Source: Escherichia coli (lineage in GTDB: Bacteria > Pseudomonadota > Gammaproteobacteria > Enterobacterales > Enterobacteriaceae). From it: DNA of 64,000 nt. The translations under genes and the position numbers were made by a program. Where the stretch lies: assembly GCF_046105845.1 (NCBI RefSeq), contig NZ_CP151004.1. One strand, written 5' to 3'. Within the stretch, counting starts at the first letter, position 1. Every line of letters starts with the position of its first letter. This document shows positions 4,186 through 29,055 of the stretch, piece by piece. The notes beneath the pieces are model-generated. The model saw only the letters and a program-made list of their open reading frames with translations. It did no database searches and had not been told where the DNA came from.

Positions 4186-5142
4186 TCAATACCCCATGTT
4201 TTTCTTCTTCTCTAACTCTTCTTTTGCGGTATCAGGCAGGTAAAGGGTGGACTTGGTCAGGGTCAGCTTTTCAGGCATGGTGCCGTCTTTTTTATATTTC
4301 TCCAGCGCATCAAAAGCGGGGCCTGCCATGTTCGGCGTCAGTTCAACGCTGGCGTTCGCTTCGCCATCAATCATCGCTTTGTAGATGTCCGGCACGCCGT
4401 CGATAGAGCCTGTCAGGATATCTTTGCCCGGTTTCAGGCCCGCTTCTTTAATTGCCTGAATTGCACCAATCACCATGTCATCGTTATGGGCGTAAACCAT
4501 GCAGATGTTTTTGCCGTTGTTTTCCGCTTTGATAAAGCTCTCCATGACTTCTTTGCCTTTACTGCGGGTGAAGTCACCTGACTGCGAGCGGATAATTTTG
4601 ATATTTGGCGCATTCTTTATGGCTTCGGCAAAGCCTTTCTTACGGTCAATGGCGACGCTGGCCCCAACAGTGCCCTGCAGCTCCACCACGTTGCATGGTT
4701 TGCCATTCACTTCTTTTACCAGCCAGTCACCAATCAACTTGCCTTCGAGGATGTTGTCGGCAGTGACGGTGGTCATATAGAGAGACTTGTCTTTCACATC
4801 GATGGAACGATCGAGCAAGAAGACCGGGATTTCGGCATCTTTCGCCTCTTTTAATACCGGCTCCCAACCGGTCGCTACCACTGGAGCGATAAAGATCGCA
4901 TCCACCCCTTGTGCAACGAAGGAACGTACCGCTTTAATCTGGTTTTCCTGCTTTTGTTGACCATCGGCGATTTTCAGTGTGATACCGCGTTTTTCGGCTT
5001 CACTTTTCGCCACGTTGGTTTCAGCGGCACGCCAGCCGGATTCCGATCCGACCTGCGAAAATCCAACGGTTAATGGAGCGGCCAACGCCATAGACGACAT
5101 GGCTGCCGAGACTGCAGAGACTACAAGTAAGCGTTTCCACAT
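4186..5142 (-). CDS. ytfQ: periplasmic sugar-binding protein of ABC transporter
   Basis: 318-aa ORF with signal peptide (MWKRLLVVSAVSAAMSSMALA) and periplasmic binding-protein fold signature; operon context. Confidence 0.88.
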   Translation of the reverse strand: MWKRLLVVSAVSAAMSSMALAAPLTVGFSQVGSESGWRAAETNVAKSEAEKRGITLKIADGQQKQENQIKAVRSFVAQGVDAIFIAPVVATGWEPVLKEAKDAEIPVFLLDRSIDVKDKSLYMTTVTADNILEGKLIGDWLVKEVNGKPCNVVELQGTVGASVAIDRKKGFAEAIKNAPNIKIIRSQSGDFTRSKGKEVMESFIKAENNGKNICMVYAHNDDMVIGAIQAIKEAGLKPGKDILTGSIDGVPDIYKAMIDGEANASVELTPNMAGPAFDALEKYKKDGTMPEKLTLTKSTLYLPDTAKEELEKKKNMGY

Positions 5143-26361: not shown

Positions 26362-27000
26362 ATGCCCGGGCGCTTTGAACTAAAACCAACCCTGGAGAAA
26401 GTCTGGCACGCGCCGGACAATTTTCTCTTCATGGACCCGCTGCCGCCGATGCATCGTCGGGGGATCATTATTGCCGCCATTGTATTGGTGGTCGGATTTC
26501 TGCTTCCATCTGATGATACGCCCAACGCGCCGGTGGTGACGCGTGAAGCGCAGTTAGATATTCAGTCGCAATCACAACCACCGACAGAAGAACAGCTGCG
26601 GGCGCAATTAGTCACGCCACAAAATGATCCTGATCAGGTGGCTCCGGTCGCTCCAGAACCAATACAGGAAGGCCAGCCAGAAGAGCAGCCGCACCCCCCC
26701 CAAACGCAACCATTCCAGCCAGATAGCGGAATTGATAATCAATGGCGCTCTTACCGTGTCGAACCCGGTAAAACGATGGCACAGCTGTTCCGCGACCACG
26801 GGCTGCCCGCTACCGATGTCTATGCAATGGCGCAGGTAGAAGGCGCGGGTAAGCCGCTGAGTAATTTGCAAAACGGGCAGATGGTGAAAATCCGCCAGAA
26901 CGCCAGCGGCGTGGTGACGGGCTTAACCATTGATACGGGGAATAATCAACAGGTCCTGTTTACCCGTCAGCCGGATGGCAGTTTTATTCGCGCGCGGTAG
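26362..27000 (+). CDS. ytfB: OapA/LysM-like cell-division-associated protein
   Basis: Start trimmed to [21 protein letters not shown]… (212 aa); single TM then periplasmic domain. Confidence 0.85.
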
Positions 27001-27134
27001 ATGAAGGGTCAACCAGAAGCCAGCTAAGGAGCGTCTCTTTGATGACCTTACGTCTGGCTTCCAGTGCCTGGGGTGAAACCATACTGATATGTTGACATCC
27101 TCCACGCCCTGAAGGACGTGGATCCCTGCTACGT

Positions 27135-28343
27135 TCAGGCTGTCGCCTGAATCATTTCGGTGGGTTCCTGCTTCAACGAGCGGCCTGACTGCACCATCTC
27201 TCCACAGGCAAGAACGGCGTGCCCCGCCGCTAAAATGTTACGAGCGCCGTTTACATCGGCGTTCGCTGTATATCCACATGCCTGGCATCTGAATTGACTT
27301 TGTGACAGGCGATTTTCTTTCGCTGTATGACCACAGCACGCGCAACGCTGGCTTGTGTACGCTGGCGGAACAGCAAGCACCTGACCGCCACGCCAGAGCT
27401 GCTTGTACTCAAGCTGGCGGCGCATTTCATACCAGCCCTGATCCTGTATCGAACGGTTTAAACCTGATTTTGCCCGGACATTGCGCCCCGGCTGGCTGAC
27501 CGTACCCGCTGCTGACTTTGACATGTTGCTGACCTTCAAATCCTCAATGACTATCATTGCGTGGTTTTTGCTGACGGTCGTTGTGACTTTGTGAAGGTAG
27601 TCCCTGCGGATATTTGCGATACAGGAATGCAGTCGCTGTATTTTGCGTTTCTGCTTCTGCCAGTTGTTGCTGAATTTGACCTTGCGGCTTAACTGTCGCT
27701 GAAGTCTCGCCAGCGTCTTCTGGTTTTTCTGAAAACTGTTTACAGGCCCAAAGACTGTGCCATCTGACAGCGTGGCGAGTTTAGCCACGCCAGCATCCAG
27801 CCCGACCATTGATGCTGAAGGGTGAACCGGAGTTGATACTTCATTTTCAGTCTGAATACTGATGTACCACTTACCGCAGGACTGGCTGACAGTGACATTT
27901 TTCACAACACCCGTGACCTGACGGCTATTCCGGTAGCGCATACAGCCAAGTTTCGGCAGAAAAATACGGCTGTTTTCCTGATCGAGCTTAACGCCCTGCG
28001 GGTAGCGGAATGCATCATTCTGTCCCCGCTTTTTGAATCGGGGAAAAGCAGCCCGCTTCTGGAAGAAGTTTTTGTAAGCCCGCTCAAGGTCTTTCAGTGA
28101 CTGTTGCAATGGCTGTGACGGGGCATCTTTAAGCCATTGCGTTTCAGTGGCATTTTTCCACTCAACCAGCCAGGAAGCCATTTTCCCGTAAGGGATGTAT
28201 TTATTACCGGCCTCATGATTCTCATTCTGAAGCGCCAGAGCACGATTGAAAACGAAACGACATGCGCCTGCGAAGCGCCTCATTTCACACTCCTGTTGAC
28301 CACCTGGTCTTAACTGGAATTTAAATGCCTGTAATCGTTTCAC
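27135..28343 (-). CDS. tnpB: TnpB (OrfB_IS605) RuvC-like RNA-guided endonuclease
   Basis: 402-aa ORF with RuvC-I (GLDAGV), RuvC-II (IVIEDL), zinc finger (CACCGH…CQACG) and RuvC-III ([10 protein letters not shown]) motifs. Confidence 0.9.
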
Positions 28344-28350
28344 AGGTCAA

Positions 28351-28782
28351 ATGATACTTTGGTCTATGAAAAAAGAAACCGATATCCGGCGTGGAAAGCA
28401 TTGTGTTTTCCTGATGCATGTTCACCTGGTCTTTGTCACCAAATACCGACGCCAGATTTTTGACCATGACGCGAAAGAAAAACTACGCACTTACTTTTCA
28501 AAGGTATGTGCTGATTTTGAAGCTGAACTGGTTGAAATGGATGGCGAACCAGATCACGTCCATTTGTTAATTAACTATCCTCCCAAACTGGCGATATCCA
28601 GTCTGGTAAACAGCCTCAAAGGCGTATCGAGTAGGTGACTGCGACGAGATCGACCAGATATTGCAGTCAGGTATTACTACAAAGGCGTTTTGTGGAGTCC
28701 TGGCTATTTTGCCAGTAGCTGCGGAGGTGCGCCAATATCCGCCATCCGTCAATACATTGAACAACAGCAAACACCTGGTTAG
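28351..28782 (+). pseudogene. tnpA: IS200-like Y1 HUH transposase TnpA interrupted by in-frame TGA
   Basis: HUH motif (PDHVHLLINYPPK) before a TGA at 28636..28638; the same frame continues (LRRDRPDIAVRYYYKGVLWSPGYFASSCGGAPISAIRQYIEQQQTPG) to TAG at 28780..28782. Confidence 0.75.
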
Positions 28783-28797
28783 GTGGAAAACCGCGCC

Positions 28798-29055
28798 TTA
28801 TATCCCCGCCCTGAAGGACGGGGTTTTACGGCGCACTGGATAAACCAGGCCAAGCGTATGCTGGTTGATCAAATAATATCCCCCAAGCGCAGCAATATTA
28901 ATATTCACCTGCAATGGGTCGCTATCTGCCTTAAAAATATTGTGTTTCTTCCCTTCATCCAATAATTCCATTAAATGCAAGTGCGCATGATTAATTTCTA
29001 AGAGACGCTGTGATTTTGCATAATGCACACCTTTACTTTGGTTTTCACTATGCAC
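28798..29055 (-). pseudogene. ytfA: ytfA-like remnant ORF; 3' end reads into the IS left-end hairpin
   Basis: 85-aa GTG-start ORF; last 7-8 codons (…TPSFRAGI) are encoded by the IS terminal hairpin; upstream in-frame TAA near 29182. Confidence 0.4.

Follow-up and report, generated by a model that had tools for sequence, protein, structure and literature searches.

Compensatory base-pair difference between the two subterminal hairpins of an IS609 copy in Escherichia coli

The window analysed here, a stretch of 64,000 nt of the Escherichia coli contig NZ_CP151004.1, contains two almost identical 20-nt hairpins near the right end (RE) and the left end (LE) of an element whose sequence identifies it as a copy of IS609, a catalogued E. 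coli insertion sequence (IS) of the IS200/IS605 family. Here, we showed that positions 3 and 18 are the sole difference between the two hairpins; they pair with each other in the stem and read A:T at the RE and C:G at the LE. Very probably, the hairpins are the imperfect palindromes that lie subterminally at the left (IPL) and at the right (IPR) of IS609, i.e. the structures recognised by its transposase, and the difference is a compensatory change kept by selection on the stem. An earlier, sequence-only reading of this DNA had described two terminal hairpins that differ by a compensatory change at positions 3 and 18. Its positions and the near-identity of the two 20-mers were exact, and the compensatory change is real. 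The hairpins do lie at both ends of the IS, but they are subterminal rather than terminal: 10 nt separate the RE hairpin from its end of the element, and 16 nt the LE hairpin. In what follows, coordinates are those of the window, and the top strand of the element is the minus strand of the window.

A search of the window for the motif CCNCGCCCTGAAGGACGNGG with up to three mismatches returned just two matches, the RE and the LE hairpins. Shuffling the window led to an expectation of 0.08 matches, and none of 100 shuffles had two or more. Each 20-mer forms an 8-bp stem, in which positions 1-8 pair with positions 13-20, closed by a 4-nt loop. What makes the palindromes imperfect is pair 6:15, which in both copies reads C.A (a mismatch) on the plus strand and T.G (a wobble) on the minus strand. 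The hairpins have the same orientation; they are thus direct repeats, and the element has no terminal inverted repeats. Folding of both strands, proposed as a check in the sequence-only reading, gave the hairpin as single-stranded DNA on each strand and at each end, with z-scores between -2.4 and -3.4. The fold energies were -6.9 and -7.7 kcal/mol for the RE and -15.4 and -16.7 kcal/mol for the LE with flanks. An outer helix (GCGCC with GGCGC) closes around the LE hairpin, and its pair 11:50 covaries among relatives, with C:G in 12, U:A in 7 and U.G in 2 (GTGCC/GGCAC in 7 of 21 sequences).

Relatives of the element were collected with the intact TnpA of O157 as the query, which gave 43 loci in species-representative genomes, and hairpins are present at both ends of related copies in other species. 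Among the 16 distinct RE stems read on the top strand, 95.1% of the cells are standard pairs, against a mean of 89.2% after shuffling that none of 500 shuffles raised to the observed value; the covariation score is 0.281 against 0.144 in shuffles, and sliding the register leaves at most 58.6% of cells paired. The 21 distinct LE stems are 93.9% paired, with at most 45.2% in slid registers. At both ends the covariation scores are about twice the shuffled means, and 0 of 500 shuffles reach what is observed. The pair that differs within the window, 3:18, is among RE stems U.G in 6, A:U in 4, C:G in 4 and U:A in 2, and never unpaired. Pair 4:17 shows one double change from C:G to U:A, in a Morganella locus (L021), and pair 6:15 is U.G in 7, C:G in 6 and U:A in 3. 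At the LE, pair 3:18 is C:G in 17 sequences, U.G in 2 and C.A in 2. The top strand has many more G.T wobbles than the bottom strand: 15 compared with 2 in RE stems, and 21 compared with 8 in LE stems. This excess fits the minus strand of the window, or an RNA copy of it, as the species that folds.

Some observations weigh against a strict requirement for pairing. The two C.A pairs at LE 3:18 belong to the relatives L028 and L032, three LEs carry C.A at 4:17, and the LE of the K-12 copy has A.C at 5:16. The O157 RE has C.T at 4:17 despite an intact tnpA, and one RE from soil has A.G at 3:18. The relatives share a phylogeny, so that the shuffle statistics overstate their independence. Stem pairing thus appears to be strongly favoured, though not absolute. 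The earlier interpretation of the hairpins as a selected DNA or RNA secondary structure is supported by family-wide covariation and by related copies carrying both hairpins. The comparison with other copies, which the sequence-only reading had proposed, brought further covariation (3:18, 4:17, 6:15) but also non-compensatory changes in a few relatives.

A scan of metagenomes for CCNCGCCCTGAAGGACGNGG returned at least 120 loci. Among the matches listed, pair 3:18 is C:G in 69, A:T in 13, T:A in 4 and G:C in 6, with a minority unpaired, although the pattern fixed 18 bases and this biases the variants that it can detect. Among the unpaired combinations, many come from unrelated sequences, by our judgement coding ones. 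In 35 of the matches listed, the hairpin adjoins homologues of TnpA and/or TnpB, some of them with just 25-39% TnpB identity. Variants with A:T, T:A and G:C recur in unrelated contexts beside TnpB homologues of 25-64% identity, so that the A:T state arose in several of these contexts. About 16 of the matches listed were set aside: they share one recurring gut flank (CCGCGCCC...GACGAGG), have no TnpA or TnpB homologue nearby, and were judged to be coding and unrelated to IS ends. We also observed the exact 20-mer CCCCGCCCTGAAGGACGGGG at 20-70 nt past tnpB homologues that are 25-39% identical to InsQ, in soil and peat (e.g. L049, L053, L064, L076, L134), and often no tnpA homologue was detected within 2.2 kb of these loci. 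Judged by these loci, the hairpin sequence is conserved far more deeply than the proteins.

Within the species, the difference between the two ends does not vary. We searched 5426 E. coli genomes by megablast with exact-seed queries of 35-36 nt, whose word of 28 exact nt lets variants with a second nearby change escape. The RE context with A:T was found at 5126 places in 4129 genomes, and the LE context with C:G at 4955 places in 3435 genomes. In the same genomes and with the same word, the RE context had no match with C:T or with C:G, and the LE context had none in the swapped state, A:T. The RE context with A:G gave 162 plasmid hits over query positions 1-29 alone, which is a solitary remnant on IncI2 plasmids (described below), and no true RE with A:G was found. 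The difference between LE and RE is an old, fixed feature of the IS609 lineage.

The assignment to IS609 draws on a megablast of positions 27000..28950; of the 5426 complete E. coli genomes queried, 5425 had a match. Where a copy sits at another locus, the match runs from query position 90/93 to 1844/1845. The full-length copies among those listed are 97.6-98.9% identical in nucleotides to the window copy along its whole length, including the K-12 insQ/tnpA locus and O157. They are annotated with InsQ/TnpB and tnpA, and the O157 tnpA is named in RefSeq as 'IS200/IS605-like element IS609 family transposase'. We placed the boundaries (Table 1) by comparing the empty site of strain CH10508 (L001) with the occupied site and with ydcO/ydcL, where K-12 has its copy. 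The sequence is ...TTTAT|CACATC... when empty and TTTAT|IS|CA(T/C)ATC when occupied, with no target duplication. On the minus strand, the element starts directly 3' of TTTAT (28844..28840) and finishes with ...AGGATGTCAA (27101..27092). TTTAT at the LE flank and TCAA at the RE end are the same at the two different loci, that of the window and that of K-12, and the cleavage sites of IS609 were reported as TTAT and TCAA in a paper on P1-like plasmids (PMC6906374). The remaining literature naming IS609 that we found consists of resistome and mobilome listings, and neither these nor the P1-plasmid paper treats the IS609 hairpins. By analogy with the elements of Meers et al., from whom we take this role, TTTAT is the expected transposon-adjacent motif (TAM) of TnpB.

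The window copy resembles the K-12 and O157 copies in full length, in its ends and in its TTAT/TCAA sites. It differs from other IS609 copies in its site, next to ytfB, which it has in common with O157 and others, and in a nonsense mutation of its own in tnpA. The insertion splits a gene for a regulator of the TetR/AcrR family (27001..27091 and 28840..about 29160) that overlaps the 3' end of ytfB. This gene is intact in strains CH10508 and YP3, and the insertion is common to O157 and many other strains. The two genes of the element are divergent in the window copy. With its stop codon repaired for scoring, tnpA matches the NF033573 transpos_IS200 equivalog at 149.6 bits against a cut-off of 55; the TGA replaces Leu96 of the intact O157 allele. 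Because of this stop codon the window copy lacks a functional transposase and cannot move by itself. The tnpA of the K-12 copy is likewise annotated as a pseudogene with an internal stop.

Table 1. Features of the IS609 copy and its ends in the window (RE, right end; LE, left end; the minus strand is the top strand of the element)
Feature	Position	Strand	Reading or detail	Basis
Complete IS609 copy	27092..28839	-	1748 bp; minus strand = top strand	Empty versus occupied site and K-12 copy at another locus
RE terminal 10 nt	27092..27101	-	Top strand AGGATGTCAA; right cleavage site TCAA = 27095..27092	Empty/occupied-site boundary
Predicted omegaRNA scaffold	27092..27261	-	Overlaps the 3' end of tnpB and stops at the RE boundary	RNAalifold and sub-threshold Rfam matches
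RE hairpin	27102..27121	+	CCACGCCCTGAAGGACGTGG	Direct reading of the window
IPR, right-end subterminal imperfect palindrome	27102..27121	-	Top strand CCACGTCCTTCAGGGCGTGG; 3:18 = A:T, 6:15 = T.G	
Putative right guide GGAT	27122..27125	-	Directly 5' of the RE hairpin (top strand)	Analogy with the IS608 guide rule
tnpB/insQ	27135..28343	-	RNA-guided endonuclease, 402 aa	NCBIfam NF040570 guided_TnpB, 385 bits, cut-off 100
tnpA (pseudogene)	28351..28782	+	Y1/HUH transposase, 143 codons; in-frame TGA at 28636..28638	
Outer helix around the LE hairpin	28793..28834	-	GCGCC 28793..28797 pairs with GGCGC 28830..28834	Single-stranded DNA fold
LE hairpin	28804..28823	+	CCCCGCCCTGAAGGACGGGG	Direct reading of the window
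IPL, left-end subterminal imperfect palindrome	28804..28823	-	Top strand CCCCGTCCTTCAGGGCGGGG; 3:18 = C:G, 6:15 = T.G	
LE terminal 16 nt	28824..28839	-	Top strand CCAGTGCGCCGTAAAA; last four, AAAA 28827..28824, = putative left guide	
Flanking target/left cleavage motif TTTAT (TTAT)	28840..28844	-	Outside the element	Also abuts the LE in K-12, O157 and relatives

The geometry of these ends is that of IS608 of Helicobacter pylori. In IS608, TnpA binds both subterminal palindromes on the single-stranded top strand and cleaves at two places, 3' of a TTAC that lies 19 nt 5' of IPL and at a TCAA that lies 10 nt 3' of IPR (PMC3201880). Four guide bases, located 5' of each hairpin foot (AAAG on the left), specify these sites, and the two ends are distinguished by the geometry of guide and cleavage site, not by the sequence of the hairpin (PMC3201880). 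Like IS608, IS609 has tnpA and tnpB, imperfect palindromes near both ends on one strand, TCAA at 10 nt 3' of IPR, a target 5' of IPL, and candidate four-base guides at the feet of the hairpins. Unlike IS608, its target and guide are TTAT and AAAA instead of TTAC and AAAG, the spacing at the LE is 16 nt instead of 19 nt, tnpA and tnpB are divergent with tnpA toward the LE, and the hairpin sequences differ.

Targets and guides change together among the relatives. At the LE, the fourth base covaries in the distinct sequences (TTAT with AAAA in 12, TTAC with AAAG in 6, and 3 exceptions), and in loci of Photorhabdus type (L036-L040, L044), whose TnpA identity is about 50%, TTAG comes with AAAC and TCAC with GAAG. 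At the RE, where the equivalent of the right guide in relatives is GAAT or GAAG, TCAA comes with GGAT or GAAT and TCAC with GAAG. In the aligned ends, this covariation matches the experimentally derived retargeting rule of IS608; the same kind of covariation is known from Geobacillus elements (Meers et al.). One point fits poorly, since the guide GGAT at the RE gives a T.G contact, not T:A, under the IS608 rule as we read it. We note also that the outer helix of the LE would compete with the pairing of guide and target.

The RE hairpin may have a second role, as the 3'-terminal stem-loop of the guide RNA of TnpB (omegaRNA). In almost all TnpB orthologues a subterminal RE hairpin lies within 10 nt of the 3' end of the omegaRNA (Nety et al., PMC10278001), and this hairpin is the sole consistently conserved feature of the scaffold and is contacted by the WED linker of TnpB (PMC10278001). 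The predicted omegaRNA of IS609 would be alike: as in those of ISDra2 and of the orthologues surveyed, a 3' stem-loop within 10 nt of the end would correspond to the RE hairpin. RNAalifold, applied to 12 relatives over the 170 nt upstream of the RE boundary, predicted 49 pairs, with compensatory changes in 13 and the RE hairpin included. This predicted omegaRNA region is mostly coding, and the hairpin stands 10 nt from the RE end. In addition, a long-range helix is predicted on the minus strand between the terminal GGAUGU (~27093..27098) and A(C/U)AUUU inside tnpB (~27233..27238; alignment columns 24-29 with 165-170), in which the C/U change keeps pairing with G. In this model the helix may be a guide-proximal, pseudoknot-like element of the omegaRNA. 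All Rfam scores are below the gathering thresholds (HgcC 24.6 against 50, over 27079..27202 of the minus strand; sot0042 19.3 against 88; RAGATH-18 29.5 against 44.9), and we rejected membership in any of the three (RF00062, RF02656 and RAGATH-18, respectively). Because the whole-model scores fall short, the upstream scaffold differs from those of HgcC and sot0042. The consensus 3' hairpins of HgcC (CCccCGcccUUuAgggCGggG-AGGAGGUCA) and sot0042 (CccCGCCCUUcAGGGCGggG) align with high posterior probability to CCACGUCCUUCAGGGCGUGG-AGGAUGUCA of the window, the RE hairpin together with its 3' tail. On small numbers, an omegaRNA role may explain why the pairs of the RE are uniformly compatible with RNA while the LE tolerates C.A.

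These elements can be assembled into a mechanism. The sequences, the boundaries, the genes, the covariation, the strand asymmetry and the fixation within E. coli are results of this analysis; for TnpA binding, guide pairing, and the expression and function of the omegaRNA in IS609 we infer from the literature on relatives. The hairpins would fold on the single-stranded top strand, the sense strand of tnpB, as in IS608, and a dimer of the Y1 transposase TnpA would bind them once folded. The guides AAAA (LE) and GGAT (RE) would pair with TTAT, in the flank 16 nt upstream of IPL, and with TCAA, 10 nt downstream of IPR. In this way the element would be excised by 'peel-and-paste' and inserted 3' of TTAT, with no duplication of the target. 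The RE hairpin, transcribed together with the 3' region of tnpB, would also form the 3'-terminal stem-loop of the omegaRNA guiding TnpB. With formation of the stem required, position 3 could change solely if position 18 changed to match. The RE of the IS609 lineage would have turned A:T while the LE stayed C:G, and both states are now fixed.

How well does this explanation compare with others? The compensatory look might be a coincidence of two neutral substitutions between duplicated ends, and indeed the window offers a single pair of differences, which as one case is no proof of selection. Yet two random differences would fall on partner positions and still be complementary with a chance of only ~1.4% ((8/190) x (1/3), by hand arithmetic), the family covaries at 3:18, 4:17 and 6:15, and the exact-word queries of the E. 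coli genomes found neither a C:T RE nor a true A:G RE, against 5126 exact A:T places. We therefore give coincidence hardly any credence. Chance repetition of the hairpins themselves is ruled out by the shuffles together with the family-wide covariation. It is also very unlikely that the hairpins are transcription terminators, of tnpA at the LE and of tnpB at the RE, with stems conserved for termination. A left-end hairpin of IS200 reportedly blocks transcriptional read-through, and in IS609 the LE hairpin is followed on the plus strand by TTTTAC and lies 21 nt past the stop codon of tnpA. But a scan for the terminator consensus called neither hairpin, and the T-run is just 4 nt long; being complementary to the guide, it reads CTTT or ATAT in relatives. 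The wobble pairs, moreover, are biased towards the minus strand, the antisense strand of tnpA.

The remaining alternatives accept selection on the stems and place its cause elsewhere. The RE stem might be kept mainly as RNA, as the 3' stem-loop of the omegaRNA, with little contribution from DNA recognition by TnpA. The RNA-compatible pairs at 3:18 and 6:15 in all 16 distinct REs, next to C.A in an LE that lies outside the omegaRNA, point this way, and so does the presence of the same 20-mer ~20-160 nt past TnpB homologues (25-39% identity) that lack a detected TnpA homologue within 2.2 kb. The alignment of the HgcC and sot0042 consensus hairpins to the RE hairpin, and the contact of TnpB with such a hairpin (PMC10278001), are in line with it. 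However, the LE has nearly the same hairpin outside the omegaRNA, which argues for a common selector of both ends, namely TnpA; IS608 TnpA binds both palindromes (PMC3201880), and TnpA is presumed to act in trans in mobilising TnpB-only elements (Meers et al.). We consider a predominantly RNA-based selection unlikely. One might also speculate that the difference between A:T and C:G is itself adaptive, marking the ends for TnpA or TnpB or lowering recombination between the direct-repeat hairpins. The difference is completely fixed in E. coli, most relatives keep their hairpins unlike (loop TTTA at the RE and TTCA at the LE, T.G at RE 3:18), and the hybrid single-hairpin remnants described below indicate that the two hairpins do recombine. 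But three relatives (L008, L011, L020) have C:G at 3:18 in both ends, so that end identity does not need this pair, the ends of IS608 are told apart by guide and cleavage geometry (PMC3201880), and fixation is expected anyway for one IS lineage from a single ancestor. An adaptive difference thus seems improbable to us. There is an equally slim chance that the fixed difference is functionally selected, e.g. through tuning of the RE stem as omegaRNA or limitation of recombination between hairpins, and, relatedly, that the 46-nt hybrids are mobilised as minimal elements. Recognition of both stems by TnpA, with a compensatory change at 3:18, remains by far our preferred explanation.

The remnants just mentioned are 46 nt long and read TTGACATCCT-CCACGCCCTGAAGGACGGGG-TTTTACGGCGCACCGG, followed by ATAAA. 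They consist of the outer 10 nt of the RE, a single hairpin and the outer 16 nt of the LE, with the TTTAT flank, and they have no right guide. The hairpin joins the 5' arm of the RE to the 3' arm of the LE, and because of this hybrid nature it is unpaired at 3:18. Of 5426 E. coli genomes, 141 carry the remnant, in 147 places altogether, i.e. about one copy per genome, at five or more sites: the nleD region, a prophage at tail-fibre/intS, pUMNK88_Hly, the terminase region of a phage-plasmid and an O157 prophage. Among our loci they are at L088 (3522..3541), L167-L171 (1201..1251), L173 and L177 (1498..1548). They look like deletion scars, the expected product of recombination or slippage between the hairpin direct repeats. 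No full-length IS609 was found at the remnant sites; among the rows sampled, the phage-plasmid site showed just solitary and empty states, and the rows for pUMNK88 and the O157 prophage were uninformative. They are similar to palindrome-associated transposable elements (PATEs) and to derivatives of IS200/IS605 elements resembling miniature inverted-repeat transposable elements (MITEs), in that they keep the exact outer ends of IS609 and TTTAT. They differ from PATEs in their single hybrid hairpin, unpaired at 3:18, in their lack of a right guide, and in their number of about one copy per genome, which does not look like proliferation. A variant of the remnant occurs in 162 plasmid records of E. 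coli, and the copy that we examined (L172, 201..247) is on an IncI2 plasmid carrying mcr-1.

Other unusual ends were observed. In this IncI2 remnant and in three loci of Buttiauxella warmboldiae (L012, L017, L019), the LE has TTATAT in place of its guide region 5' of the hairpin (top strand GTAAAA or GTAAAG), which turns it into a palindrome that is long and perfect, GTGCCTTATAT-hairpin-ATATAAGGCAC. The 162 plasmid records match a solitary remnant whose flank is of this type. By the rule of IS608, a TTATAT guide mismatches the TTAC target, yet there are several copies in one genome. In Klebsiella indica (L006; 3454..3473 and 4894..4913), the LE hairpin is seemingly split or partly duplicated, with CGCCCTGAAGGATG on either side of an insert of ~1.4 kb. 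Finally, a contig of 2057 bp labelled Streptomyces mutabilis (L016) is entirely IS609-like, with 84% TnpA identity and A:T at RE 3:18. An IS of enterobacterial type in a Streptomyces assembly suggests contamination.

The biology of the IS609 hairpins is already known: this is a textbook case rather than an element of a new type. The value of our observations is mostly one of annotation, in that the functional ends of a catalogued insertion sequence are now correctly placed. The element also provides a natural example of three known principles of the IS200/IS605 family: the recognition of hairpins in single-stranded DNA, the pairing of guides with cleavage sites, and an RE hairpin used twice, as DNA for the transposase and as RNA for the nuclease TnpB. 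The exact ends, the target (TAM) and the guide coordinates are useful for tests of the E. coli InsQ/TnpB. The population counts, in turn, tell how strictly one stem pair has been held over thousands of copies, and can serve as a benchmark for detectors of covariation.

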